Positions 1 through 19,314 of a DNA stretch of 20,000 nucleotides are shown here, in pieces (the first letter of the stretch is position 1; every line of letters begins with the position of its first letter). The notes beneath the pieces are model-generated. The model was not told where the DNA came from. It searched no databases and saw only the letters and a list, made by a program, of their open reading frames with translations. A program made the translations under genes and the position numbers. The stretch comes from an uncultured virus (IMG/VR IMGVR_UViG_3300011334_000440) (lineage: Duplodnaviria; Heunggongvirae; Uroviricota; Caudoviricetes). Where the stretch lies: the IMG/VR virus record IMGVR_UViG_3300011334_000440, one strand, 5' to 3'.

Positions 1-3000
1 CTCTCCCCACACTTGAGGCGATACCAACTTTACATACTGATACATATCAGAAATCTTTTTGTTTCGAATCATTCCGACCGGATAGAGGGGTAGGTCTTCA
101 ATTAACTTATTGAGCTTCTTGCGTTCTTCTTCTCTAAGCTCGGGTAACCCAAGTTGAGAATGCATCTGCGCAAACACTTCGCTATCTGTTAAAACCCCAA
201 GGTTAGTGGCCTCAATCAATCTATCTAGAGCTGAACGCATCTTGCGCGTCTTCTTTTCTTTTTTCGCCTCAAACCCTTTCTTAATTCTCTCGAGTTCCTT
301 CTTACGCTCGCTGGCAATAAGCTCAGTCAAACCTTCGCGCAAAAAGTCGGTTACTTCTTTCTTCTGTGCTTCGTTGAGTGTTGTGTTCTGAGTGAGCAAC
401 GCGCCCATTTTATTTTCAAAATCCATGATATCGCCCTTGCTCGAGCGTATGAGACCACGAACATTTGTTTGGGGTCCGCCAATTGATTCAAGGGATCGAA
501 CTGCCTGCTTTAGGCTTGATACTGTAAACGGACGGCCAAAGGCTTCGTCGATGAAGGGCTCGAGGCCAGAAAGTTCCTCTTCGCTATAAACTTCTTTTAA
601 GGAGTCGCGCACATTGTCGATGAACTCCATGACGTCGGGATACTTTTCAATCCTATCTCGAAGAACTTCAGCTTCAGTTGGCTTTGGCTCTGGTGTATAG
701 GTAGGTTGAAGCCCACCCTGTTCCTTTGTCCTCTGCGCGATCAGTCTGCGAATTCGGGCGGCAAACTCTTCGAGCTGATCTTTTTTCTTTGGCTCTTGTT
801 GGAGACGGGTTGCTTGCTTTTGCAAAGCTTCTGCTGATGCCTCCGCCAAAGCTTCGAGCCTTGAGCTAGCTTCGGTCGGGATTGCAACAGGAGCCTGATC
901 TTTGGCCTTTGCCTTGGCGTCGATAACACGACGGATCGCTTCTCCCCGGGTTGCGGGTGGCTGAATGCCTTCACGGGCGCGGGCTTCTCCGAGAGCCTGA
1001 GCCGAGAAAATTTCAAGAGCGTTAGTCAGGGCGGCGTCAAAATAAAGATCGAGTTTACGGCGAACGTTTTCTTGATTCTTGGCATCACGCAAAGCTGGTG
1101 TCAGCATAAGCAAACTTTTAATCTGATCTTCGGAAGCTGCCGTTACGCTAGGGTTCTCGGAGCGTTTAATGATCTCAAGTATCATTCGGCTCAGTGCGGT
1201 GGTTTGTTCCGGGTTAAGGCGAATGCCATCAGCATCACTTCCCTCAACTTCAGGTGCGGCGGCGAGATCCGCCCCAAGAAACTTGGATCCATCGGCTACT
1301 GCCTGCTCACTGCTAATATATTCTGCTACTGCCACCTCTAGTTCCGCAACAGTTGCTTCCTTTTTATTTAGTTCGACAATCTTCATAAGCTTTTCGATAG
1401 TCGACTTAGTCTTTTTACTCGTGATCAGTTTTTCTACGGCCCGACGACTTGAGTCAATAAGACCAGAAGAAATGTCGCTTTCTTCATTTGCAAATCCGGC
1501 TAATCTTCCCCGAATCGCAGAATCAATTTGTCTTCCAACGAACATCTTCATGGCTTCTGGATTGTTAGAGAGTTCGCCAAGCGCGTTCCATAGATCAATG
1601 GTGCGTCCGGGTTCGGTTCCATATTTCTTGCTTAATAAAAGCATTACCTCTGCCAACTGTTCCTTAGCGTATAAATCTGTCTTGGCTTTTTCTCCGAGGG
1701 CCTTGGCTAACTCAAATCCAATTGCGCCCTGCAACGGTAAAGAACTCTTGATGTTTCCACTCAAGAAAGCACTAAGAGAATTCTGTACACCGTTAGTTGC
1801 TATGTAAGATCTGGCATCAACAAATTGTTGATCGCGAGGTATTGATTGATAATACCAAGCATCCAATAATTTATCTTTCTTTTCCCCTTCGGGTAGCACG
1901 TCAACAAACTTGGTGATGATATTCTTTATAGCTCGGCTCTCGCGAATCTCGGGGGCTGGCGCCGGAGAAATAACTTTGGCAAACTTCCCATACCCAGCAT
2001 CACGAAGAGCTGCAATTAAAGGGCCTGGGCTAGTATAACGTTGGCCGTTATAGTTAACTACTTCCTGTCGTTCAAACAATCGGATAACGGCATTGGCTGT
2101 AGCCTTCGCTTCCGAAGAGGCTGTCGTTGGGACGGCTATGTTGCCGGGAATCTTAACACGATACTGTTGGTATGTTGGTTCAGTCTCAAAGCTTTGTTCG
2201 TTACTGGTGACTTCAGCGGGTGCGGAAGTTGCAACAAAAGCTGCGACAGGCAACGACCTTCCAGCTTCTTCCATATTCTCCGCCAACTCAAGGGCTTTAT
2301 TGGCAATGGCTGGAAGACTTGCCCGGCCTCCGTCCATGACGGCTTGAGTTGCAGATCGGAAAAGATCCCTCTCGTCAGCCGTAATAATCCCACGGCGTCG
2401 GCTAATATCGAGAGCATCTAGCCACTCCTCTACGCCAACGGTCTTGAATAAATCGTCAGCAACCGTTACTCCAAGTACGCCTTCAGTTCTTCCCTCAAGA
2501 TGATTCTCAATCATGCGGTAGATTCTTAGGTCATAAGAATCAAATACGGTTGATGGACGCGGAGCAGTTGGAGAAGTGCCGGGGGCTGGAGCTGGTATAG
2601 CTAGAGTCTCTCCGGCTTGAATAAATTCGCTTGATGTTTTGCGTAGGGAAGAGATTGCTTCCTCGATGCTTTGACGCATTACCAATCGATCCTTTGCGTT
2701 CGGGGCCAATCCTAATCCACGCTTGACCACTGTAGCCATGCTGTCAAACCACACGCCAAGTCTCGCAAGAACAGATTTATTCTCCGATTTTAAAATATCC
2801 TTGAGACGCTGAGTCGCCCGAGCAATGTCGTTTGCATTAATAGAGCTAACTTGCTCTGTGATACCACCTGTTAATTTCAACTGGGATAGCTGACGAATTC
2901 CCTCCATGGCTACAAGATAAGAGTTATTCGACAGAGCTTTGATTTGTGCTTGCACACTGGGGTTGGTAATGTCGGACCCTAAGGAAGAGTGGTAAAGTCT

Positions 3001-6000
3001 TCCAATCGCTAGTTTGGAGGCTTGTGACAGCGAGTCACCGATTGCGGTGAGTTCTTCTATAGGATCAAGACCAAGCTCGCGGTAATACCGGAGCGTCTCC
3101 ATGTGGATTGTTTCTTCGATCAATGCCTGAGTCAAATAAGATTTATAAGCTTCAGGAGAAAGTCTATTCTTTCCTTTCTCTAGAAGTGTTGGATTCATTA
3201 CAATAGTGTCAGAATCATTATCTGATCCAACAACAACAGCCATCGAGTGGGTGAAGTTAGGATCAATTCTTACGTTGTAGTTGTGAGCTTGGCCCTTGGC
3301 ATCGCGGAATGTAATTACATTGTTGTTGTAATCTTTTCCGAGAACTGACTTTAAAATGTCATCGGTAGTTGTGATTTGTTCAGGTGTTGCCTCGACTGTG
3401 GACTTTACTGGAGCTACAGTCTCGGTAGGCTTAATTTCTTCAGCCTTCAGACCTTCAAACCCAGCACCAGTGGTGGCATCCAATAAGCGAAGCTTGGCTC
3501 GCATCCTGTCAATGTTCTGCTGATCGACCTCGGCTTTTGATTCCAAGAAGATAAGATTGGGTCGGCTTGCGCTATCAGTACGCCATACCCGATAAACAAG
3601 CTGAACGGCCTGAATCGCGCTGACGGGTGGCGACATGATAATCATATCCCGAGGCTTGTCGCCGAACTTATCATCCAACTCAATTCCAGTCCCGCCCATC
3701 TCCTTGGTGGCGATCAGAACATCAGCTGCATTCTCATTGAAGGCGGCCAAGGCTTGTTCTTTTGTCTGGCCCGATCCTGTGTACATCTTTGCAATTCTTA
3801 GATCTGGAGCAAGACGAAGGATTGCCGCCTCTACCGCAGCTGAAGTAGGGTCAACCGTTTCTCCGCGGGCATTTGTCTCAGAAACAAATCCTACATAGAT
3901 AACTGGCTTTCGCCCTTGGCGAATAGATTTGATTGCCCGTTTCGCTGCGGAATCTACTTTATATTCTTCTAGTGCGCGTTTCTGGGCAGATACTAGCTTT
4001 CGCAATGAAGCAATGTCGGTATTCTGTGTACCGCCATACATGTTCTTAATATCTTCAAGTTGCTTGGTGATCGCGGAATCAAGTGGAACATCTTGGAACT
4101 CGACATTTACTCCGTCCAATTTGAGTGAGCGGGAACGCAGGATTCCATTCTTTACCAGTCCGTCAAGATAAACCTCGAGACGATCTTGCATCTCTGTTTC
4201 GGTAACTCCAGGCGATAGCGTCCAATAAGATTTCTTTCCGCCCCGAAGATATTGTTTTTCAAAACCAAGTCTCTTGATCAAGGCATCGGGGGATTCGGTA
4301 TCAAAAATACCAAGTCGGCCAAGCGAAAGAAGCTGATCGGGTGTTTCAAACGGAGTTCCAGAAGCCATCAATACCCTACCGGCTTTCTGTGAAATATCAT
4401 TCATCAAGATCGACCAGGCGCGGCTCTTGCCCTCTTGAATTGCTTTGTGCAGATTCCGTCCGGAATGTTGTTCGTCAAAAATAACAACCGTCTTTGCGTC
4501 TACTAACGGAAGAATATTTTCTAAATACTGTGAGGTGTAAGTTGAGACAACTACTTTTCCGGGCACATTCTCAATCGGAAGACCGCGACCACTCTCACCT
4601 TTACCTCCACGAGCGGCAATCGGAACGCCCATCAATCCCGCATCTTTCTCAATCGAACCGCCAATTGTGTTAAGATCCCAGTTCGGAGTTACCGCATCGG
4701 GGGCCGTCAAATAAAATACATTGAATCCTTTGTTGAGATAGTATTTAGCTGTTGCTAGTAATACTCGAGTCTTGCCAGTTCCGGGACCATTAGCCAAGTA
4801 AAAAGCTTTGTGCTTGGAGCTTTCCATCGTGGTGATGGATGCCGCCACATCTTGCTTCTGTTCGGGGGATAAAAGTCTGACTGTATCCGATCCAATCGGA
4901 TCTAGAACTTTCTCGCTGTAAGGTTTGCCTAACTGGTTGCGGGATTCGACGAAGGACTTTGGGATGGGGACGCCACGAGCGCGTTCAGCTCCAGGTCTCC
5001 CGACTCCGGTTGCCCCACCTGTAACAGCTGGTCCCACTTCTTTCCGCTCAGGGGGAACGGTTTCTTTAAGAACTCGCTTTGTGATGGCAGCACGTTCGGC
5101 TTGGATTTCAGCGAGTTTCTGGCGAGCTTCCTCACGTCGATCATCGGCTGTTTTGGCTTGGGGTTTTGGGGTTGGTTTAGTTGTTGGTTCTTCATATGTT
5201 CCCTCCTCGTTTATTTTAATTCCGCTATCGGCCAGAATCTGGTCGTTGACCTTTAGCAGATTTGATCGGAAGGTGGCGGCAATATTATTCTTTGCCTGAC
5301 CCTCTTCCATTGTTTGAGAAGCCAGATAAGGCTCCGCAAGTTTGTTTAATTTGTCGATATAGTCATCGGACTGGGCCTTGGAAATGTTTCCGTCATCGAG
5401 GGAGGTTTTTAAATTGCTATCGACAGCCTCGGATAATTCGGTGATGCTCTCGGGAGAAAGTTTAGAATCTACTGTAGATTCCAGAAATCCCTCGAAAGCT
5501 CGCAGCATATTAACGGAGCGGGAGGTTTGAGTTTGCTCAAGTAAAGCTTTGGCTGAAGCTAGTTCCACATCATCAAAGAAATCATCGGCCTGAAGTTTTC
5601 GGAACCGCTCGATTGCCGGCTGAATTTGTTTAGCCGTTAGATTTCCTTCGCGAACAATTCCTTCTGGTTCCACGACTTCTCGAACTGGAAGAGTTCCAGC
5701 TTGCTGATTCTTACGGAACTCGGCCTGTAATGCCGAAACAAACTTCTGCTGAACGGCCGGCTTTAGCGCATTGATGTTGTCAATGGTAGTCCCAATCTTA
5801 GCTGCATCCTGAGCGCTGGCTCCTTTACCGGAAGCAACGGAGTCAAATGCGAGTCTCTCCGCTTCCGTCCCTAGGGACTGCCTAAAGGGAGCTTGGAGAT
5901 TCTGGGCGAGAATGGATAGGGCTTCCTGCCTCTGAGCTGGCGAGGGAACGTCAGAGGGACTGGTAATTTGGTTATCTACTTCTGTGGCACCAATCTGATC

Positions 6001-8961
6001 TAGAGCTTCGTTGATAGCCCCGGCTACAGCGGGATTGATTCCCTGCTCTTCGGCCAGAGTCTCGGAGTCGACGGCGTTTACCCGAAGTCCTGGAGTCTCA
6101 AGGCTGACAGCCGCGCCAATGCCCACACCAGCCCGCATCCGGGGAACTGCCCTGCGGATAAAATCGCGGAGTCGGCTATTAAAGATCGTGCTTAAGGATA
6201 GATTGTTCTTGCCCTGTCTAAGTTCGTATAAGAAGCTGTTGATCGTCGCGGCGGATACTTCATCTGCAATATTGTATTTTTGATATCCGGCGAGAGACTT
6301 ACTTTGCAAATAAGATTTCTTGCGATTTACGTAAGCCAGAAGAGTTTCGGCTGGGGTCATTATGTTGCGACCATTCTCATCAATCGCGCCAAGACTTTGG
6401 AGTAGCTCGATTGTCGCGGGATTCTTTAAGTTAAATACGACGCCAAGGGCTTGGCTCGAATTCTCTCGATCGTCCGGCTCAAGCTTTTGGTATTTCTGGA
6501 AAGCCTCGCTTTCGGGATTATTGATTGGCAGGACGATATCCGGTCTAGCCTCCAATTCGGGGGCAAGCTCACCGGTTCTAGCTTCTTTTGTGGCTTCACT
6601 CTCGAATTGCTGAACTAATTTAGATACCGACTCTTCTCCACGGACTAGACGGGCGGCCTGTCCCTCAACCTGCATGGCCTGAAGTCTTGCAAGTTGTTCC
6701 CGCATGGCGACGGCTTCATCCGCTGGAGCTTCTTTTATTTTGGTCTCAAGAACATTGATTTGATCTTGAAGTTTTTTAGCGTTGATCTCTGCTGGTTTCT
6801 CCTGCTCAATCAGCTCTTGGCCTTTAGCTAGCTGGCTTTCTAGAGCAACTTCATAATCGGTTGGCCCGAGATATTTTCGGGCAACTTCCTCGATGGCATC
6901 ATCCGTTCCAGCTTTCTCAAGCTCAGAATTCATCTGATCAATCTCGTCAGTCTCAAGCCCGATCTCTTCCGCTCGCATGACAAACTGATCCTTCAACTCT
7001 TGCTTAAATTCAATTGCTGGAGTTCCCTGTAACCAATTACCGGCGTCCGTTTTTACATTGGTTACTGAATAGGTCTTTCCATCCTCAGACAGTTCACCAA
7101 TGACACGACCCTGACTCTCGAGCCACTGAATCTTCGAAGCATTGGCCGGAGAATTATCCAGCTCGATGGTCGTGGCGCCTTTCTCAAATACACCAATCAA
7201 CTCATTAAGTGCAGAAAGTTTTTCTTCTTCGGTTTCAGGAACTCTGGTTTCAATAGTTGGCGGTACACCAATCTGTCCCTCCGCTTTTGTAATCTCTTGC
7301 GAAAGCATGGATTCAACCGATCCTTGTTTAGCAGATTCTACTGCTTCATCTGCTACCTTTGTTGTCTCGGGAGTGGTTACCGTATCAAGAGAAGAACGAA
7401 CATTGACGGCGTCAAAGAGGGCTTGGGCTTTCGGGGAAGTTAAAGACTGACGAAGCTGGGTCATTTGCTCCATCTTTTGTTGGTCATTAAGATTTGGATC
7501 AACCTTAATGTTTGATACTGTTTGCTCTAAAGATTTTGCAAATCGATCGTCTGCTAGTTTATATATCTTGGCTCGACGAACTGCGATAGAGGCGGCTCCG
7601 GCAACTCCTGGGATCGCCATGCCGAGTCCAATACCTCCCGATACAGCCAAGTTCTGGAGCAGGGGCTCAACGGGATCTTGCCCACGTAGGATGGCTTCAA
7701 TTTCTTCTGATGCGGTTTCTCCGAGAGTAGTTCCCACCACTCTGCCCGTGCTCCCAACTAGGGGGGCTAACGCAGGAATTTTCGTGGCCAAGGCTTTTGC
7801 GGCTACGTGGTTGGCCAGAGCGTTATCGATCGAGTTTTCTAATTTGTTTCCAGCTCCTTCAGCTAAACCCAGAACAGCACTCTCGCTGAATATGGAGGAC
7901 AAGCGTTGGGGGACGGTTAGATTCCGTGGGTCGCCCTCGAAAGATTGCGATGCTCCGATGGTTGCATACGTTGCTCCCTTGGATAGAACAGTCGGAACTT
8001 TAATAGCTTGATCCGCAATCTGGCCAGCTTTACCCAATAACTTTGTGGCGCCAGCACCAACTCCAATAAACGAACCCACAGATCCGAGGGCTGCCCCGGC
8101 AAGAGTCCCAGTCATGTAATCTTTTTGAATTGTATTGTTGATCGAGTTTGATAGGGCGGCCCGGCGAGCAACCTGATCGGGATTGTTCTCGTCAACTATG
8201 ATGTCACCGAGAGAAACAAAAGGTAGGAAGGCGTCGCCGGATTGAATCGCAAAGTTTCGCAGGCTGGCTGATCCCAATTTTTTAGAACGATCGCTTTCGA
8301 GATCCCGAAGATAGTTTTCGGCCATTGCCAAATTCATTCCAAGCTTGGCTGTTAGAGGTCCTGTGCCGAAAGCCATCCCCGGTTTTTCGTCCTTAGGGGC
8401 AATTGATTTTCCGCTAGTTAGTTCGTCTTCGTAAAAATTTCCAAGCTCCAAAGCTTTGGCTGCCTGTGCTGGATCGGTGATTGTTCCTACATAGTTACGG
8501 GCAGCAAAACTTTTTTGCGTTGCTTCAGCCTCCTCATTTGTAATCCCAAGGCCACCTTGCAAGTAAGCTCCAATAGTTTTACCAACACCAAGAAGGGCAA
8601 GTTTGGTTAGTTCACCCCAGTCACCTTTTTTCTCTGCATCTAAAATCTTTTGGTTGGACTCAATCGAATAGTTACGGACATTGTTTTGAACGTCTTCCCA
8701 AGCCTGAGTGTTAAACGGAAGTTTCTTTTCCTTAAATCGCGTAGCCAGTCCACCTATGAGATCGGTCGACTGCGGGTCATCCCTAAGGGCAATTAGATTT
8801 TGAGCTTGAGCCAAGTTAGTGGGCGGGGCTGAAAACAGAGAGTTAATCTCTTGCTCGGGGGTAACTCCGGAAGGAGCAAACAAGGCGTCAATAGCTTGTT
8901 GCTCACCCTGGGGGAGACTAGCTATATCAAGCTCTGTCTCGGGGTTAAATGGATCCGCCAT
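1..8961 (-). CDS. Giant polyvalent virion/ejection protein (>2,987 aa, 3' end beyond the window) containing an SF2 Strawberry-notch-like helicase and a zincin-like domain
   Basis: Manual translation from ATG 8961 (MADPFNPETELDIASLPQGEQQAIDALF...) stays open to base 1 (...MYQYVKLVSPQVWGE) with no stop seen. It is missing from the ORF track, presumably because it has no stop in the window. It follows two ejection-type genes, the position held by T7 gp16 and P22 gp16. Helicase motifs: GPGTGKT (4768-4788), DEQH (4465-4476), SGT (4354-4362), QLVYRVWR (3580-3603). Confidence 0.92.
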   Translation of the reverse strand, partial: MADPFNPETELDIASLPQGEQQAIDALFAPSGVTPEQEINSLFSAPPTNLAQAQNLIALRDDPQSTDLIGGLATRFKEKKLPFNTQAWEDVQNNVRNYSIESNQKILDAEKKGDWGELTKLALLGVGKTIGAYLQGGLGITNEEAEATQKSFAARNYVGTITDPAQAAKALELGNFYEDELTSGKSIAPKDEKPGMAFGTGPLTAKLGMNLAMAENYLRDLESDRSKKLGSASLRNFAIQSGDAFLPFVSLGDIIVDENNPDQVARRAALSNSINNTIQKDYMTGTLAGAALGSVGSFIGVGAGATKLLGKAGQIADQAIKVPTVLSKGATYATIGASQSFEGDPRNLTVPQRLSSIFSESAVLGLAEGAGNKLENSIDNALANHVAAKALATKIPALAPLVGSTGRVVGTTLGETASEEIEAILRGQDPVEPLLQNLAVSGGIGLGMAIPGVAGAASIAVRRAKIYKLADDRFAKSLEQTVSNIKVDPNLNDQQKMEQMTQLRQSLTSPKAQALFDAVNVRSSLDTVTTPETTKVADEAVESAKQGSVESMLSQEITKAEGQIGVPPTIETRVPETEEEKLSALNELIGVFEKGATTIELDNSPANASKIQWLESQGRVIGELSEDGKTYSVTNVKTDAGNWLQGTPAIEFKQELKDQFVMRAEEIGLETDEIDQMNSELEKAGTDDAIEEVARKYLGPTDYEVALESQLAKGQELIEQEKPAEINAKKLQDQINVLETKIKEAPADEAVAMREQLARLQAMQVEGQAARLVRGEESVSKLVQQFESEATKEARTGELAPELEARPDIVLPINNPESEAFQKYQKLEPDDRENSSQALGVVFNLKNPATIELLQSLGAIDENGRNIMTPAETLLAYVNRKKSYLQSKSLAGYQKYNIADEVSAATINSFLYELRQGKNNLSLSTIFNSRLRDFIRRAVPRMRAGVGIGAAVSLETPGLRVNAVDSETLAEEQGINPAVAGAINEALDQIGATEVDNQITSPSDVPSPAQRQEALSILAQNLQAPFRQSLGTEAERLAFDSVASGKGASAQDAAKIGTTIDNINALKPAVQQKFVSALQAEFRKNQQAGTLPVREVVEPEGIVREGNLTAKQIQPAIERFRKLQADDFFDDVELASAKALLEQTQTSRSVNMLRAFEGFLESTVDSKLSPESITELSEAVDSNLKTSLDDGNISKAQSDDYIDKLNKLAEPYLASQTMEEGQAKNNIAATFRSNLLKVNDQILADSGIKINEEGTYEEPTTKPTPKPQAKTADDRREEARQKLAEIQAERAAITKRVLKETVPPERKEVGPAVTGGATGVGRPGAERARGVPIPKSFVESRNQLGKPYSEKVLDPIGSDTVRLLSPEQKQDVAASITTMESSKHKAFYLANGPGTGKTRVLLATAKYYLNKGFNVFYLTAPDAVTPNWDLNTIGGSIEKDAGLMGVPIAARGGKGESGRGLPIENVPGKVVVSTYTSQYLENILPLVDAKTVVIFDEQHSGRNLHKAIQEGKSRAWSILMNDISQKAGRVLMASGTPFETPDQLLSLGRLGIFDTESPDALIKRLGFEKQYLRGGKKSYWTLSPGVTETEMQDRLEVYLDGLVKNGILRSRSLKLDGVNVEFQDVPLDSAITKQLEDIKNMYGGTQNTDIASLRKLVSAQKRALEEYKVDSAAKRAIKSIRQGRKPVIYVGFVSETNARGETVDPTSAAVEAAILRLAPDLRIAKMYTGSGQTKEQALAAFNENAADVLIATKEMGGTGIELDDKFGDKPRDMIIMSPPVSAIQAVQLVYRVWRTDSASRPNLIFLESKAEVDQQNIDRMRAKLRLLDATTGAGFEGLKAEEIKPTETVAPVKSTVEATPEQITTTDDILKSVLGKDYNNNVITFRDAKGQAHNYNVRIDPNFTHSMAVVVGSDNDSDTIVMNPTLLEKGKNRLSPEAYKSYLTQALIEETIHMETLRYYRELGLDPIEELTAIGDSLSQASKLAIGRLYHSSLGSDITNPSVQAQIKALSNNSYLVAMEGIRQLSQLKLTGGITEQVSSINANDIARATQRLKDILKSENKSVLARLGVWFDSMATVVKRGLGLAPNAKDRLVMRQSIEEAISSLRKTSSEFIQAGETLAIPAPAPGTSPTAPRPSTVFDSYDLRIYRMIENHLEGRTEGVLGVTVADDLFKTVGVEEWLDALDISRRRGIITADERDLFRSATQAVMDGGRASLPAIANKALELAENMEEAGRSLPVAAFVATSAPAEVTSNEQSFETEPTYQQYRVKIPGNIAVPTTASSEAKATANAVIRLFERQEVVNYNGQRYTSPGPLIAALRDAGYGKFAKVISPAPAPEIRESRAIKNIITKFVDVLPEGEKKDKLLDAWYYQSIPRDQQFVDARSYIATNGVQNSLSAFLSGNIKSSLPLQGAIGFELAKALGEKAKTDLYAKEQLAEVMLLLSKKYGTEPGRTIDLWNALGELSNNPEAMKMFVGRQIDSAIRGRLAGFANEESDISSGLIDSSRRAVEKLITSKKTKSTIEKLMKIVELNKKEATVAELEVAVAEYISSEQAVADGSKFLGADLAAAPEVEGSDADGIRLNPEQTTALSRMILEIIKRSENPSVTAASEDQIKSLLMLTPALRDAKNQENVRRKLDLYFDAALTNALEIFSAQALGEARAREGIQPPATRGEAIRRVIDAKAKAKDQAPVAIPTEASSRLEALAEASAEALQKQATRLQQEPKKKDQLEEFAARIRRLIAQRTKEQGGLQPTYTPEPKPTEAEVLRDRIEKYPDVMEFIDNVRDSLKEVYSEEELSGLEPFIDEAFGRPFTVSSLKQAVRSLESIGGPQTNVRGLIRSSKGDIMDFENKMGALLTQNTTLNEAQKKEVTDFLREGLTELIASERKKELERIKKGFEAKKEKKTRKMRSALDRLIEATNLGVLTDSEVFAQMHSQLGLPELREEERKKLNKLIEDLPLYPVGMIRNKKISDMYQYVKLVSPQVWGE
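2720..3300 (-). other. Domain of the giant ORF: zincin-like metallopeptidase (MPTase-like) with a variant EExxH motif
   Basis: Beta strands (SMAVVVG..DTIVMNP) precede the helix ALIEETIHMETL (EETIH at 3103-3117). A downstream Glu lies in VAMEGIRQ (2902-2904), followed by a trailing amphipathic helix LARLGVWFDSMATVVKRGLG. Confidence 0.6.
3450..4880 (-). other. Domain of the giant ORF: SF2 helicase of Strawberry-notch (SBNO)-like type
   Basis: LSPEQKQDV...AFYLANGPGTGKTR; VVIFDEQHSGRN; RVLMASGTP; GILRSRSLKLDGV; GRKPVIYV; AFNENAADVLIATKEMGGTGIELDD..KPRDMIIMSPPVSAIQAVQLVYRVWRTDSASRP. This is collinear with SBNO consensus blocks as I recall them (GDGxGxGKGR, VFDECHxAKN, YxSAT, GISL, ELPWSAxxAIQQFGRTHR). 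Confidence 0.85.
4929..5195 (-). CDS. Candidate overprinted small protein (88 aa) in an alternative frame inside the giant ORF
   Basis: AGGAGG (5207-5202) lies 6 nt upstream of ATG 5195. The 88-codon ORF coincides with a low-complexity linker of the giant protein and ends just before the helicase domain. Confidence 0.35.
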   Translation of the reverse strand: MKNQQLNQPQNPKPKQPMIDVRKLARNSLKSKPNVLPSQSEFLKKPFPLSGKKWDQLLQVGQPESGDLELNALVASPSQSPSSNPATS

Positions 8962-11567: not shown

Positions 11568-12809
11568 TTATGCCATCGCGGGGACTTCACCCATCGCGAA
11601 TGCCTCCATTTGAATCTGGGGTCTGCCAATGTTAGCTCCTTCGACCTCTTTGAGTTCTTCACGCAAGAGTTCGACAGCCTTCTCCTCGTACTTCATGGCT
11701 TCGTCCAGGTTATTGTTTTCTTCTTTTTCGATGGCTATCGCCATCATCTTTAAAGCTCCTAAATTGGTCACGATCAAATCGTCGTCATCGGTAATCACGG
11801 GGATAAACTTACGCTTCGCAAGCACGGTCACGGTAACACCTTCTTCTCTTTCATGACCAGGAATTGCATATCGTCGATACTGGGGCAACGTCTCGTCGGG
11901 CGCAAGTATGGCGATACAGTATTCAGCGCCCGTGGTCGGATCGACTGCATAGACGCGGACCCAACCTTTCGTTGCAGTTTTGTTTATTGCATCGATGGAT
12001 CGGAAAGCATTAACTGTGGTGCGGGGGAGTTCTGTGAAAGTTCCATAATCCCAAACAGATAACCATGGGTAAGCGGCAGTAGTGCCAAGACTTACATCTT
12101 CGCTATAAAGTCCCGTATAAACACTACTAGTAATATACCAAGTCAACCCAGGATCGACAGCCATCGTGACTTCATCGGTAGGATCTTGCTGGTTTATAAA
12201 TTTATATTTTGGATAACCATTTTGCGTGCCAATCCAAAAATAAACTCCATTGTAGGGAGCTCTTCCCCCAGTTAAACCAGAAACCAACACGCTGGAATTA
12301 CCAGACCCAGCACTCAAGTTCAAACGCTCACCATCAATGTAAGCTCCATTTTCCTGAGTCTGGACTCGGTTGTTGTAGGTATCCGATCCACGGAACAAAA
12401 TGGTTGAGGTAGCGTCTTCAATTAGGTCAGTATATACGCGGATATATTTTTGAGACTCAATCGAACGAAAGCATGGTACATAACCCCTGTCTTGCAATTG
12501 TCTCCACGCCCCGGCGGGGGACATTCCCGGACCATTAGCCATAAACTCATACCACTGGTTATAAACTTGGGCGGCCGCGCCGTCGTAGTTATATCCCAAA
12601 ATAGTTTCAAACTCGCGGGGCAACGTAATACATCCACCATAAACGCAAACGGAATAACGCCCATAAGTTCCGGCGTACAATCCCTTATTGAGTAAACGTT
12701 CTTGGGCTTCGTTGGTGCGTGCGAGCAACTGAGGATCAGTCGCGCACATCCCGTTCTGGGTAACGCGGGCCAGTTGTTCTTTAACCGATCCGTAAGTACG
12801 ACGGATCAT
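11568..12809 (-). CDS. Putative head-tail adaptor (tail tubular protein A / gp4-like), 413 aa, with an internal insertion
   Basis: The N-terminal helices (QLLARTNEAQERLL), the ITLPREF strand and the C-terminal helical pair (GALKMMAIAIEKEENNNLDEAMKYEEKAVELLREEL) are typical of podoviral adaptors. It has an ATGA-type overlap with the upstream gene. Confidence 0.65.
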   Translation of the reverse strand: MIRRTYGSVKEQLARVTQNGMCATDPQLLARTNEAQERLLNKGLYAGTYGRYSVCVYGGCITLPREFETILGYNYDGAAAQVYNQWYEFMANGPGMSPAGAWRQLQDRGYVPCFRSIESQKYIRVYTDLIEDATSTILFRGSDTYNNRVQTQENGAYIDGERLNLSAGSGNSSVLVSGLTGGRAPYNGVYFWIGTQNGYPKYKFINQQDPTDEVTMAVDPGLTWYITSSVYTGLYSEDVSLGTTAAYPWLSVWDYGTFTELPRTTVNAFRSIDAINKTATKGWVRVYAVDPTTGAEYCIAILAPDETLPQYRRYAIPGHEREEGVTVTVLAKRKFIPVITDDDDLIVTNLGALKMMAIAIEKEENNNLDEAMKYEEKAVELLREELKEVEGANIGRPQIQMEAFAMGEVPAMA

Positions 12810-13240: not shown

Positions 13241-13268
13241 AGATTAACGTGTTGCTATTTTGTGTCAA
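13241..13268 (-). promoter_or_regulatory. Putative sigma70-type promoter, near-leaderless
   Basis: TTGACA (13268-13263), 16 nt, TAATCT (13246-13241), 9 nt, then ATG 13231. No Shine-Dalgarno site is present. Confidence 0.5.
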
Positions 13269-16360: not shown

Positions 16361-18204
16361 GAGGACGCAATTGCTTTGGTTACCAGTACCCCCACATTAT
16401 AAACTTGAGCGGTCCCAACTGCGTTAGATGTTCCGTTTGAAATTACAACCGTAACTACATCTGCCGCGCTTACATATCCAAACAATGTGGTATAAGTTGG
16501 ATTATTGGCTGGAACACTGGTATATGTCACTTGCACAAAATCGCCAACCTCGGCGTCTGTTACGGATATGGTAAAAGAATTTACCGAATTAGCGCCGGGG
16601 TCAATTGAGCTGGAGGCTCCTGTTGCGTATTTAAATTTTGTTAGGGTGGCATTTGAATCCCCCGCGGCAGCAATACGAAACCCTGAGTCTGATTGAGTAA
16701 TGCCAACAACATCTAAGGCTGTAGCGGGAGAAGCTATATTGATGCCCACTTTATGATTCGTAGTATCTACAATGAAATTATCTGAAGATACAGTGAGATC
16801 TCCAGAGATATTTGCATCTCCCGTGACGTCTAAAGCGGCTGTTGGGTTTTCCGTATTTACTCCAAGACCAACTCCAGGTTTTGCATATAATAAAGTTCCT
16901 ACATTTACATTGCCCGTAAAAGCGGCCGTACCATTTACATCTAAAGTTTTAGAGGGCGTGGAATCATTGATTCCAACTCTAGTATTAGTTGTATCAACTT
17001 GTAATACACCGCCCGCGACTGACACATCCCCAGATACGCCGAGGGTTGTCAGGGCAGAAGCTCCGCTAACAGCTAAATCTCCGGTCACATCTAGGGCAAC
17101 GGTGGGGGTTGTTTTATTAATGCCAACAAAATTTCCGGATACGTCCACTTTAAGAACATTTGTATCAACTGATAGATTTCCACTAATTGCTGTAGCCCCA
17201 ACAACATCAAGAGCAACTGTTGGGGTTGTTTTATTAATGCCAACAAAGTTTCCGGTTGTATCGACTTTAAGAACGTTTGTATCAACAGCTAGGTCTCCGC
17301 TAATCGATGTAGCTCCCGTGACATCCAGCTCGACTGTTGGCGATGCTGTTTTAATTCCAACACGGTTTGTAGTAGCGTTGACAATCAGGGGGACTCCGCT
17401 TGATGCCCCAAGAACTTTCAAAACTTCTACCCCGTTCGCTCCGCTTGGATTAACGAGCAGAGTTGTCGTTTGAGCCGCTCCGTTAACGTGAAGTAATTTG
17501 GCTGGGGCATTTGTTCCAACCCCAACCCTACCGGTTGCACCATCTACAACAAAAGTTTGATCGGATATAGAAGACTCAACAACAAAATCAGCACTACTTC
17601 CTGAAGAATTGACGGTTGCGCCAACCGTGAACTCAGCGGTCTGCTGGGCTCTAAAAGTTCCATTAACGTCCAAAGAAGTTTGTGGAGAGCTGGTAAGAAC
17701 ACCAACTCTGTCTGAACTACCCTCTGTAAATAGTAAGTATTGTTGTCCGTTTCCTTCTACCCTAAAATCAAACGAGCCACTATTTTCGTTGACCGTTACA
17801 TTCCCGTTTAATTGTGAAGGTCCGTTTACTGTTAATTGGGTGAGTGGATCCGAATACGTGGCGGAAGCGGATGGAGAAACCTTCAAACCAGAGTCAACTG
17901 TTTCGCCCTCATTTATCCCGTCTGTTCTTACCAGATCAGTATTTACTTCGTTTGTTCCGCCTAAAGAATTTACTGTATAAAACCCTGCCCCAGAAATATA
18001 AATTGTCTGCCCGACGGCAATCCACGCACTCTGAGCAACAGTGAAGGTAATTGGGTCACCAACTGCTGGCTGGGTAAAGTCTGCGGCTACAGTTGTAAAA
18101 GCATTGATCCCGTTGGTGCCGTTCGTGCCGTTAATACCAGCAAGACCCTGAGGTCCTGGGGCTCCGGCTTCTCCAACAACAAGTGTATTACAATCGCAGC
18201 TCAT
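16357..18204 (-). CDS. Tail fibre protein with a short collagen-like stretch and eight VGI..P...LDVxG repeats, 615 aa
   Basis: Gly-X-Y stretch GEAGAPGPQGLAGINGTNGTNG; eight repeats of the type RVGINxxxPxxxLDVxG; AAGGAG RBS upstream; ATGA overlap with the next gene. Confidence 0.85.
   Translation of the reverse strand: MSCDCNTLVVGEAGAPGPQGLAGINGTNGTNGINAFTTVAADFTQPAVGDPITFTVAQSAWIAVGQTIYISGAGFYTVNSLGGTNEVNTDLVRTDGINEGETVDSGLKVSPSASATYSDPLTQLTVNGPSQLNGNVTVNENSGSFDFRVEGNGQQYLLFTEGSSDRVGVLTSSPQTSLDVNGTFRAQQTAEFTVGATVNSSGSSADFVVESSISDQTFVVDGATGRVGVGTNAPAKLLHVNGAAQTTTLLVNPSGANGVEVLKVLGASSGVPLIVNATTNRVGIKTASPTVELDVTGATSISGDLAVDTNVLKVDTTGNFVGINKTTPTVALDVVGATAISGNLSVDTNVLKVDVSGNFVGINKTTPTVALDVTGDLAVSGASALTTLGVSGDVSVAGGVLQVDTTNTRVGINDSTPSKTLDVNGTAAFTGNVNVGTLLYAKPGVGLGVNTENPTAALDVTGDANISGDLTVSSDNFIVDTTNHKVGINIASPATALDVVGITQSDSGFRIAAAGDSNATLTKFKYATGASSSIDPGANSVNSFTISVTDAEVGDFVQVTYTSVPANNPTYTTLFGYVSAADVVTVVISNGTSNAVGTAQVYNVGVLVTKAIASS
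17086..17330. repeat. Approximately two copies of a 117-bp (39-aa) tandem duplication in the tail fibre
   Basis: ggggttgttttattaatgccaacaaa occurs at 17105 and 17222. The protein unit is LDVxGATxISGxLxVDTNVLKVDxxGNFVGINKTTPTVA. Confidence 0.9.
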
Positions 18205-18214
18205 TTAGTTCTCC

Positions 18215-19279
18215 TTATTTGTAAAATATAACTCTGCAAAAACCATTGGCTCCAGATCCACCAGCCCCGCCCGAACCGGAAGAATTACAAGCCCCTCCGC
18301 CACCCCCACCGCCGCCGGGTTGAGCTCCAGCTCCCCCTGTTCCGCCAGAAACTCCAACTGAAGTTGAAGAGCCTCCTCCGCCCCCTCCCGTCCCACAAAC
18401 AACAAAGAAAGAATTTGAAATTTGAGTTACAGCGGCTCCATTTGTTCCGTTTGAGCCACCCACAGCCCCACCCGCAGAACTTGTATTGTTTCCGCCCAAT
18501 GTCCCCGCAGCTCTACCCGCTGCCCCCGCAAAAGCGATATTTGTTGGAGACGTATTATCAATTGATCCTCCGGCCCCTCCTCCTCCCGCGTAAGAACCAC
18601 CCGCGCCATCTCTGCCAACCCGTAAAGTTGTACTGTCTCCACCAACTCCGCCAAGACCGACGTTGGGACTTGCTCGATCGGCAACACCAACCCCACCGAC
18701 TCCACCGACTCCACCAGCTGCTCTCACAACTTTTGAGGCACCAGAAAGAGTAACAACTGTTTGGCCGCCATCAGTGCCCGCGGTTCCGTCCCCAACAGCA
18801 ATGGGAGCGCCAGATCCTCCGGCTGTTATAGTTACAGCTATTGAGGTTAAACCGGTAAGAGAACTGGTTGGGAAGTTGACATCAACATAATCTCCTGCCC
18901 CACCACCTTGTCCCCCAAATTTATTGTTCCCAACTGTCGTATTTTTCCTTCCACTTCCACCGCCACCTCCTGAACCAACTGCTATAACTCGCAAATATTT
19001 ATAGGCGCTTAACTGAGTTGTTATTGCTAATGATCCGGAACTTGAAAAATCAGTAACACTTATTGATCCAATGTTTACGGAGGATTGCAACGTAGTAACG
19101 GAAGATTCCAACGCGGTAACGGAAGATTCCAACGCGGTAACGGAAGATTCCAACGCGGTAACATCATCATTTAAAGTATCAAGTTGAGCCTGAATTGTCG
19201 CAGGTGGGGGAGTAGTATTGGCCCCGGCTGTTCCGCAATCGCAATCTCGGGCGTAGTTGTCGGGATTAGGAAAACTCAT
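18215..19279 (-). CDS. Gly-rich fibre/appendage protein with an N-terminal coiled coil, 354 aa
   Basis: Heptads VTALESS x3 are followed by a glycine-rich domain (YLRVIAVGSGGGGGSG...GGGGGGGG...GANGFCRVIFY) of the kind common in phage fibres. Confidence 0.85.
   Translation of the reverse strand: MSFPNPDNYARDCDCGTAGANTTPPPATIQAQLDTLNDDVTALESSVTALESSVTALESSVTTLQSSVNIGSISVTDFSSSGSLAITTQLSAYKYLRVIAVGSGGGGGSGRKNTTVGNNKFGGQGGGAGDYVDVNFPTSSLTGLTSIAVTITAGGSGAPIAVGDGTAGTDGGQTVVTLSGASKVVRAAGGVGGVGGVGVADRASPNVGLGGVGGDSTTLRVGRDGAGGSYAGGGGAGGSIDNTSPTNIAFAGAAGRAAGTLGGNNTSSAGGAVGGSNGTNGAAVTQISNSFFVVCGTGGGGGGSSTSVGVSGGTGGAGAQPGGGGGGGGACNSSGSGGAGGSGANGFCRVIFYK
19095..19162. repeat. Perfect 21-bp tandem repeat (3.2 copies) encoding coiled-coil heptads
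   Basis: gtaacggaagattccaacgcg occurs at 19095, 19116 and 19137, followed by gtaac. A degenerate fourth copy lies at 19074-19094. Confidence 0.97.
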
Positions 19280-19286
19280 CGCAGTG

Positions 19287-19314
19287 ATTATGCCTGTCTA
19301 TAATTATGAGTCAA
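19287..19314 (-). promoter_or_regulatory. Putative sigma70-type promoter for leaderless mRNA
   Basis: TTGACT (19314-19309), 16 nt, CATAAT (19292-19287), 7 nt, then ATG 19279. No Shine-Dalgarno site is present. Confidence 0.5.

Follow-up and report, generated by a model that had tools for sequence, protein, structure and literature searches.

A module with probable ancestry in sigma70 domains 2 and 4, embedded in a giant putative virion protein of an uncultured caudovirus

To our knowledge, phage-encoded sigma factors are synthesized as free proteins once infection has begun, and the known virion-borne tools of transcription are either whole RNA polymerases (RNAPs) or enzymes that modify that of the host. 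The 20,000-nucleotide stretch of DNA analyzed here (the window) is the terminal 20 kb of the 65,968-bp record of an uncultured freshwater virus of the Caudoviricetes (IMG/VR IMGVR_UViG_3300011334_000440), in which direct terminal repeats are present. On its minus strand, the window carries a giant open reading frame (ORF) with a sigma-like segment of about 250 amino acids that is predicted to fold confidently alone. As different methods concur in family, sub-region, and order, this module very probably shares ancestry with a factor of the sigma70 family, of which it would retain domains 2 and 4 in their native order. It departs from a canonical sigma, being fused into a polyvalent protein with a superfamily 2 (SF2) helicase, without the melting aromatics and with a region 4 helix that has no arginines. 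Searches of the open-access literature showed no earlier description of an injected virion protein with a sigma domain.

Similar to the extracytoplasmic function (ECF, group 4) sigma factors RpoE (PDB accession numbers 5uxx and 2h27), AlgU (6in7), and SigH (6kop), the module has domain 2-like and domain 4-like parts in order, joined by an acidic linker that varies, and it lacks a clear domain 3; it also appears to keep the aspartate of region 2.2, and two distant homologues match the family model TIGR02937. Unlike these factors, it lies inside a protein of 3,706 amino acids, scores below every curated cut-off, has no tryptophan in region 2.3, and, in the clade of the window, has no arginine in the recognition helix. 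Poxvirus VETF, a virion-packaged promoter factor that is joined to an SF2 ATPase and starts early transcription, is comparable by analogy only; it serves the packaged RNAP of the virus itself and is unrelated to sigma. T4 gp55 reads only the -10 element, and gp55 and gp33 are two small proteins that are made during infection for the late genes and activated by the sliding clamp. Together they resemble the module as a diverged phage sigma domain 2 (sigma2) plus a flap-binding helix-turn-helix (HTH), whereas the module has both parts in one chain, is probably packaged, and stands beside an SF2 ATPase. The binding of gp33 to the flap has been described (PMC7824862), and chain 7d7d_F is found among the fold-search rows of residues 868 to 952 (Z-score = 5.7, root mean square deviation [RMSD] = 3.0, number of aligned residues = 81). 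Mycobacteriophage D29 gp53 is a diverged sigma-like phage protein that engages the host core RNAP (10.64898/2026.10.05.756390), as the module may do; gp53, however, has a mass of 26 kDa, occurs free, has been modelled with domains 2 and 3 as the template, and was shown to displace SigA, whereas the module is embedded and has domain 2-like and domain 4-like parts. The giant protein agrees with the polyvalent proteins described by Iyer et al. 2017 (PMC5512222), which include P1 DarB, T4 Alt, and the N4-like virion RNAPs, in both its length and its disparate domains, one of them a SWI2/SNF2-like ATPase (ResIII, AAA_34, and Helicase_C_4). The word sigma does not occur in the main text of that paper; for transcription, the proteins treated there carry an RNAP or an enzyme that modifies RNAP rather than a sigma-like initiation factor. 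No LPD family was matched in the giant protein.

The giant ORF and the parts of the module are as follows.

1 to 8961, minus strand: giant ORF, with 2,987 amino acids inside the window; putative internal-virion/ejection polyvalent protein
6361 to 6441, minus strand: helix and loop (residues 841 to 867) just upstream of the sigma2-like domain, with no clear sigma counterpart
6106 to 6360, minus strand: sigma domain 2-like helical bundle (residues 868 to 952), from fold search, residue counts, and pN/pS
6091 to 6108, minus strand: VSLETP, a region 3.2-like motif of the near clade only, from homologue counts
5962 to 6066, minus strand: acidic two-helix linker (residues 966 to 1000), variable and of reduced length in distant homologues; at most a candidate sigma3 domain
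5713 to 5925, minus strand: sigma domain 4-like HTH (residues 1013 to 1083) with an acidic or neutral recognition helix, from fold search and hhalign

The ORF starts at window position 8961 and runs past base 1. The first-pass annotation had pointed by eye to three sigma-like peptides, and the ORF coordinates confirm that all three are in this one minus-strand ORF, at residues 898 to 937 (IADEV..DFIRR), 952 to 957 (VSLETP), and 1030 to 1078 (LGTEA..VSAL). In the helix and loop upstream, a phenylalanine, a leucine, a glycine, and an alanine are invariant in 19 of 19 members; this part has a predicted local distance difference test score (pLDDT) of about 90 and is hardly covered by the fold-search rows.

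The family model TIGR02937 (sigma70-ECF) is the top of 18,950 NCBIfam families for 2 of the 19 aligned members (E = 1.5e-4), the homologues L010 and L011, in which regions 2 to 4 are spanned. When nine related genomes were searched with this model, two matches only were obtained, both on the module, covering model positions 34 to 162 and 52 to 163 of 165 with per-genome E values of 1.6e-6 and 9e-6 (22.9 and 19.8 bits), while PF04542 and PF04545 had matches in none of the nine. A hidden Markov model (HMM) of 48 sigma factors matched the 19 members weakly (best E = 0.0016 in a database of 19; 0.37 for the window), and the six sigma factors of E. coli were matched by hhalign in the sigma domain 4 (sigma4) part only (E = 0.007). 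In the ESM Atlas, sigma70 clusters were returned at 0.89 to 0.90 for the window and, under a named-cluster filter, at 0.95 for L010. EgtD rows (E = 0.04 to 0.09) and an HA2_N match of 15 residues, which appeared in direct searches with the module, were rejected as chance.

Fold searches were made with AlphaFold models of residues 841 to 1100 (pLDDT 84) and 1000 to 1095 (pLDDT 89). For the longer model, the first 11 Foldseek rows from the PDB are all chains of primary sigma factors (E = 0.12 to 0.31), and phage sigma factors lead in BFVD (E = 0.09). Alignments with ECF chains extend over the whole length of both domains (155 residues for 6in7 and 157 of 164 for 6jcy). For the shorter model, rows 1 to 6 of the VIA search are all sigma factors, as are 8 of the first 10, and a sigma factor leads in Foldseek (E = 0.44). 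The top VIA row for residues 1013 to 1083 is 2h27_D (Z-score = 6.1, RMSD = 3.2), with 69 of 69 residues aligned. The fold predicted C-terminal to the domain 2-like part is a domain 4 HTH, as in sigma70 factors. A sigma4 profile built from 48 sequences of the sigma70 family was scanned over 145 windows of the full-length family alignment. Its five best windows all overlap the predicted site (score of 27.2, pairwise E = 4e-5), against a background with a mean of 11.3 and a standard deviation of 3.2 and a best score elsewhere of 17.2; the sigma4-like part gives an hhalign E value of 2e-5.

For residues 868 to 952, the first of 48,161 chains in the VIA search is domain 2 of RpoE (5uxx_C; Z-score = 6.6, RMSD = 3.7, number of aligned residues = 81), and 7 of 50 rows are sigma factors. 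Residues are compared here in E. coli sigma70 numbering, in a sigma2 register chosen manually according to how far the region 2.2 aspartate lies from the start of helix 2.3; a shift of this register by one turn is possible. The roles of Asp403, Gln406, Glu407, Asn409, Tyr430, Trp433, Trp434, and Gln437 have been described, Asp403 being a core-binding residue (10.1101/2020.09.07.285775). In this hand-set register, the equivalent of Asp403 is retained in 50 of 52 homologues and in 12 of 14 after thinning to 70% identity. The melting aromatics Tyr430, Trp433, and Trp434 that mark region 2.3 of primary-type factors are absent; the window has isoleucine, serine, and arginine at these positions, and an aromatic residue occurs at one of them in 1 of 52 homologues. 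ECF factors likewise lack the melting residues and rely on loop L3 (PMC8103513), and ECF-like melting is therefore compatible with this loss. The R-x-G of the loop L3 equivalent is retained in 13 of the 14 thinned homologues. The ratio of nonsynonymous to synonymous polymorphism (pN/pS), obtained by comparison with ten related loci and rough because pS is near saturation, is 0.094 for the sigma2-like part, the lowest of six segments; the other values are 0.134 (helicase), 0.156 (inner linker), 0.26 (sigma4-like part), and 0.235 and 0.32 (flanking linkers). Judged from these substitutions, the sigma2-like part appears to do work that is guarded by selection, and the sigma4-like part appears to be loosening.

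The recognition helix of the sigma4-like part differs from the basic region 4.2 helix by which sigma factors read the -35 element: an arginine is present in 2 of 52 homologues versus 42 of 48 sigma factors, and 45 of 52 homologues have a helix of net negative charge (region 4.2 is numbered as in E. coli sigma70). Both homologues with an arginine, P0053 and P0054, belong to the most distant ones, and P0053 and P0054/L010 keep a TVxRR recognition helix. Between the two domains, the S[LM][ED]xP motif occurs in 34 of 52 homologues, yet in only 2 of the 14 left after thinning, and the length and sequence of the linker differ in the most distant homologues. The helices that are candidates for domain 3 follow this motif instead of preceding it, and distant homologues have shorter versions of them. 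Region 3 and a layout of the FliA type (group 3) are thus not supported, and the layout is ECF-like.

Measured against these results, the resemblance to regions 2 and 4 that the first-pass annotation had seen largely holds: sigma2 comes first in the fold search and keeps the Asp403 equivalent, with no profile-profile support, and the region 4-like HTH leads both the fold search and the profile scan. The proposed region 3.2 motif falls away, being confined to near relatives, and from the proposed compact FliA/ECF-type order and spacing there survives an ECF-like succession of domains 2 and 4, without region 3 or a FliA layout. The profile comparison suggested at that stage gives matches with the sigma4 profile and, below the cut-off, between two homologues and TIGR02937, but none for the sequence of the window or with the sigma2 profile. 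The suggested AlphaFold and Foldseek comparison places sigma2 and sigma4 at the head of the respective halves with modest scores. As for conservation of the motifs, that of the region 2.2 aspartate and the R-x-G loop is borne out, and that of S[LM][ED]xP and the region 4.2 arginines is not.

Several results weigh against sigma ancestry or sigma-like function. Searches of Pfam, NCBIfam, PHROGs, and PDB sequences with the module of the window gave no match to a sigma family; the best homologues stay below the curated cut-off of TIGR02937 (42.9 bits), and those of PF04542, PF04545, and PF08281 are likewise not reached. The ESM Atlas shared-feature counts are 113 to 146, as against the 170 typical of true family members. 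Every fold score is modest and below the caution line of the tool (Z-scores of 6.1 to 6.6, line at 8); the RpoE domain 2 row is level with unrelated helical bundles, and in a second fold search, a mitoribosomal protein (9hny_Cb, Z-score = 7.6) ranks above sigma factors for the N-terminal half. A sigma2 profile did not place the site among the top 12 of the 145 windows, and its profile-profile global score of 4.3 was exceeded by 8 of 30 shuffles; on balance, the results on the domain 2 fold still lean towards sigma. A four-sequence profile of LuxR-type HTHs scored 20.8, higher than 22 of 25 sigma4 draws of equal size, and sequence alone does not separate sigma4 from LuxR-type or other HTHs. In the sigma2-like part, the equivalents of Gln406 and Glu407 are lost and that of Asn409 is threonine or hydrophobic in the hand-set register, the module of the window contains no tryptophan at all, and the sigma4-like part is no more constrained than the linkers.

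Scores below the curated cut-offs, Z-scores within reach of unrelated helical bundles, the unbeaten LuxR control, and the negative sigma2 profile test would all fit a chance likeness, with a generic HTH standing behind an unrelated helical bundle. However, the HMM search on homologues, the profile scan, three fold libraries, and the language-model features all rank sigma70 first, with the right sub-regions and order, and we therefore regard a chance likeness as improbable; these comparisons argue moderately for homology. Because the cut-offs are not reached, the region 4.2 residues are missing, and no free subunit is seen, the segment is not assigned to the sigma70 family as a member.

The embedded state was followed in homologue searches. 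In a first search, which covered 3,872 candidates with lengths of 1,642 to 5,228 amino acids only, 47 matched, all of 3,406 to 4,629 amino acids. A search of 1.84 billion representatives without size restriction gave 8 matches, of which 7 have 2,241 to 4,629 amino acids and the eighth is a piece of 307 amino acids that starts inside the module. No stand-alone module was scored among 7,996 candidates of 491 to 2,000 amino acids, and a search seeded with a sigma alignment returned FliA relatives only. Both domains and their order are retained in homologues down to 25 to 30% identity, and, one fragment aside, the module is found embedded in giant proteins and not as the free, dissociable subunit that sigma70 factors are. 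No free sigma factor or RNAP was found in Pfam scans of 57 ORFs or parts of the genome, nor in two six-frame searches, and no anti-sigma gene was seen.

If a zincin-like domain in the same chain cut the module from the polyprotein, a full canonical sigma factor that reads both the -10 and -35 elements could be released. The TVxRR helices of P0053 and P0054/L010 and the TIGR02937 matches of L010 and L011 are in line with such a factor, and processing of polyvalent proteins by MPTase domains has been proposed by Iyer et al. (PMC5512222); on the other hand, the prevailing net negative charge of the helix, the protease motif in the clade of the window (EExxH instead of HExxH), and the lack of a common -35 hexamer in the candidate promoters make this very improbable. 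A second possibility is that a sigma-derived fold has been reused for a purpose other than the start of transcription, either as a protein- or DNA-binding part of the ejection channel or of the translocase or as a tether for any passing RNAP so that transcription pulls the genome in. The loss of the melting aromatics, of Gln406/Glu407, and of the region 4.2 arginines, the relaxed sigma4-like part, and the constant location within a chain of 2,200 to 4,600 amino acids, which would hinder normal sigma release, are what such reuse would leave behind. It is nevertheless somewhat unlikely, since both domains and their order persist in remote homologues, the conserved sigma2 positions include the core-binding aspartate and the L3 loop equivalent, and ECF factors work without melting residues (PMC8103513).

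The reading that we tentatively prefer, as possible rather than probable, is that of an ejected, sigma-derived handle that recruits the host core RNAP to the first phage promoters without reading the -35 element. An ECF-type sigma70 factor that has diverged, and that comprises domain 2, an acidic linker, and domain 4, would be fused into the giant internal virion protein and ejected along with the DNA. Its sigma2-like part would dock on the beta-prime clamp helices of the host core RNAP and place the enzyme at a -10-like element, whereas the sigma4-like part, with its fold kept, would at most hold the beta flap and would leave the -35 element unread because its DNA-reading arginines are lost, a split of tasks like that between T4 gp55 and gp33. 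The core enzyme would thus reach the earliest promoters of the DNA as it enters, for which the G-rich/GTATA elements at the head of the putative early block are the likeliest candidates; energy for tracking or opening may come from the SF2 translocase that is part of the chain. Later genes would be served by the host holoenzyme at TTGAC-N16-YAnnnT promoters. A bolder form, in which the injected sigma2-sigma4 module and the SF2 translocase capture core RNAP at the entry site and open a phage-specific G-rich/GTATA promoter with ATP, so that the first genes are read without host sigma or phage RNAP and transcription may pull the genome in, is unlikely as a whole; it would add a third route to pre-early transcription beside the host holoenzyme and the virion RNAPs, with sigma4 caught in decay. 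A sigma factor built into an injected protein would allow a small phage to select the promoters that it uses first, ahead of all gene expression, and would show that a sigma factor can act while fused and without -35 reading. The small module and the candidate promoters make the idea testable in vitro without phage culture.

Candidate promoters were surveyed in this genome and five relatives, one of them covered to 80,000 of 81,730 bases, with the pieces unjoined. The pattern TTGAC[ATG]-N-YAnnnT has 59 sites at a spacing of 16 in the six genomes versus 8 to 26 at six other spacings, or about 10 sites per genome, several of them 8 to 9 nt before an ATG and probably leaderless. The conserved sites lie ahead of replication and particle genes and look like candidate promoters for a primary-type sigma factor of the host. 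Two are in the window.

13241 to 13268, minus strand: candidate promoter TTGACA-N16-TAATCT before a 141-amino-acid particle gene; a site of this pattern occupies the corresponding position in each of the 6 genomes listed
19287 to 19314, minus strand: candidate promoter TTGACT-N16-CATAAT, 8 nt before the ATG of a 354-amino-acid tail gene

This strict 16-nt-spacer class may help in identifying the host. Overlapping back-to-back promoter candidates also occur on TTGAC...GTCAA palindromes (L012:10835-10870 and L014:1745-1785; genome 10.8 and 39.8 kb), which are conserved in relatives and may be switch or operator sites.

The putative early block is a 13-kb run of small genes at genome 26.3 to 39.1 kb. 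No TTGAC site of spacing 16 is found on its coding strand, an absence that is weak evidence alone, as it would arise by chance about 1 time in 10 at some 10 sites per genome in related genomes. The head of the block is marked in 6 of 6 genomes by an AT tract, a G-rich run, and then [CG]GTATA, situated 75 to 82 nt upstream of the first ATG; among these genomes is one with a module of 28% identity. In 5 of 6, the element recurs about 44 nt ahead of an ATG, on the downstream side of an intrinsic terminator (three of these five under a strict filter).

L013:6300-6360 and 7510-7565 (genome 26.3 and 27.5 kb), plus strand: G-rich/GCGTATA elements, candidate early promoters

The copies have no -35 hexamer in common, and the pattern had no match in 30 block shuffles and one further site, inside a particle gene. 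Some caution is due here: the pattern was fitted after the sites had been seen, the genomes compared are relatives of one another, and a role of the element as a signal for packaging or replication is an alternative. Only 0.09 to 0.12 of the words were present in RNA runs, a fraction that gives no evidence.

The promoters also bear on the suggestion of the first-pass annotation that an injected sigma mimic could sequester or redirect the host RNAP. As a decoy, the module would fill the sigma sites of core RNAP, displace the host sigma, and shut down host or defence transcription. Yet the replication and particle genes of the phage themselves have primary-sigma-like promoters (59 versus 8 to 26 sites), and proteins like T7 gp16 are present in few copies per virion, too few when injected to titrate the RNAP pool of a cell. 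Sequestration is thus unlikely, and the decoy as a whole is a poor prospect, even though an RNAP-facing fold is retained while the DNA-facing residues are lost, and D29 gp53 provides a precedent of a sigma-like phage protein displacing SigA (10.64898/2026.10.05.756390). Redirection of the host RNAP is plausible.

The gene of the giant protein is the last large gene after tail-fibre-like and virion-structural genes (PHROG matches) and two genes rich in glycine and glutamine; a glucosaminidase gene comes after it, and the terminase opens the same minus-strand block. In podoviruses, this position usually holds a large internal virion protein that is ejected, and because of this match, the giant protein, which ends the particle-gene block, is probably a virion component that is packaged and ejected. 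It counts against this placement that no search, PHROGs and PDB sequences included, confirmed the portal and capsid candidates. Beyond the module, three parts of the protein can be delimited.

7552 to 8124, minus strand: Gly/Ala-rich, partly hydrophobic N-terminal stretch (residues 280 to 470), from sequence
3469 to 4866, minus strand: Strawberry-notch-like SF2 helicase/translocase (residues 1366 to 1831) with Walker A and DExH, from Pfam
2992 to 3264, minus strand: probable zincin-like (MPTase-type) domain, with identity and limits taken from its motif

The N-terminal stretch has a single 19-residue window with hydropathy above 1.5 (residue 438) and would suit an ejection protein that enters the envelope. 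The only Pfam domains found in the giant protein are those of the SF2 helicase (ResIII, E = 6e-6; AAA_34, E = 3e-5; Helicase_C_4, E = 0.006), and the Walker A pattern and DEx[HD] are present in 49 and 50 of 52 homologues, respectively. Helicase motif VI is QLVYRVWR (residues 1792 to 1799; window about 3565 to 3590, minus strand) and is conserved in the family; SF2 enzymes usually carry a glycine where it has tyrosine. The zincin-like domain has no Pfam match, and its motif in the window is EExxH (residues 1949 to 1953; window 3103 to 3117, minus strand) instead of HExxH. As EExxH is found in 42 of 52 homologues and HExxH in 8, most family members may have an inactive or altered protease domain. 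The homologues P0046 and P0048 bear an additional HATPase_c domain (PF02518 and PF13589), showing that cargo is exchanged within the family. The DxDGD motif of multisubunit RNAPs was not found in six giant proteins checked. No cultured relatives of the module, the capsid candidate, or the helicase were found in the host search, in which terminase and DNA polymerase matches were about 21 to 27% identical across long stretches, and no prophage form was found in GTDB.

A conserved, structured intergenic element consists of TAGAC, a GC-rich hairpin of variable sequence, and then AGTCT[GA]GCCG[AC]T[AC]GGCTGGAA; it is present at L013:9385-9440 and 12735-12795 (genome 29.4 and 32.8 kb, plus strand) and in 11 copies in the six genomes. 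Rfam gave no match in 78 kb, this element included, and it could be an RNA-processing, antitermination, or ribozyme-like element. A noncoding cluster of GGGTGGGGG/CCCCCACCC repeats on both strands follows the replication genes (L013:3480-3810; genome 23.5 to 23.8 kb); the repeats are iteron-like, and the cluster is a possible origin. The putative early block also contains an rIIA/rIIB pair, a GP88 family gene, and an 8-oxoguanine glycosylase-like gene (L013:13319-16535, 17113-17907, and 18394-19101).

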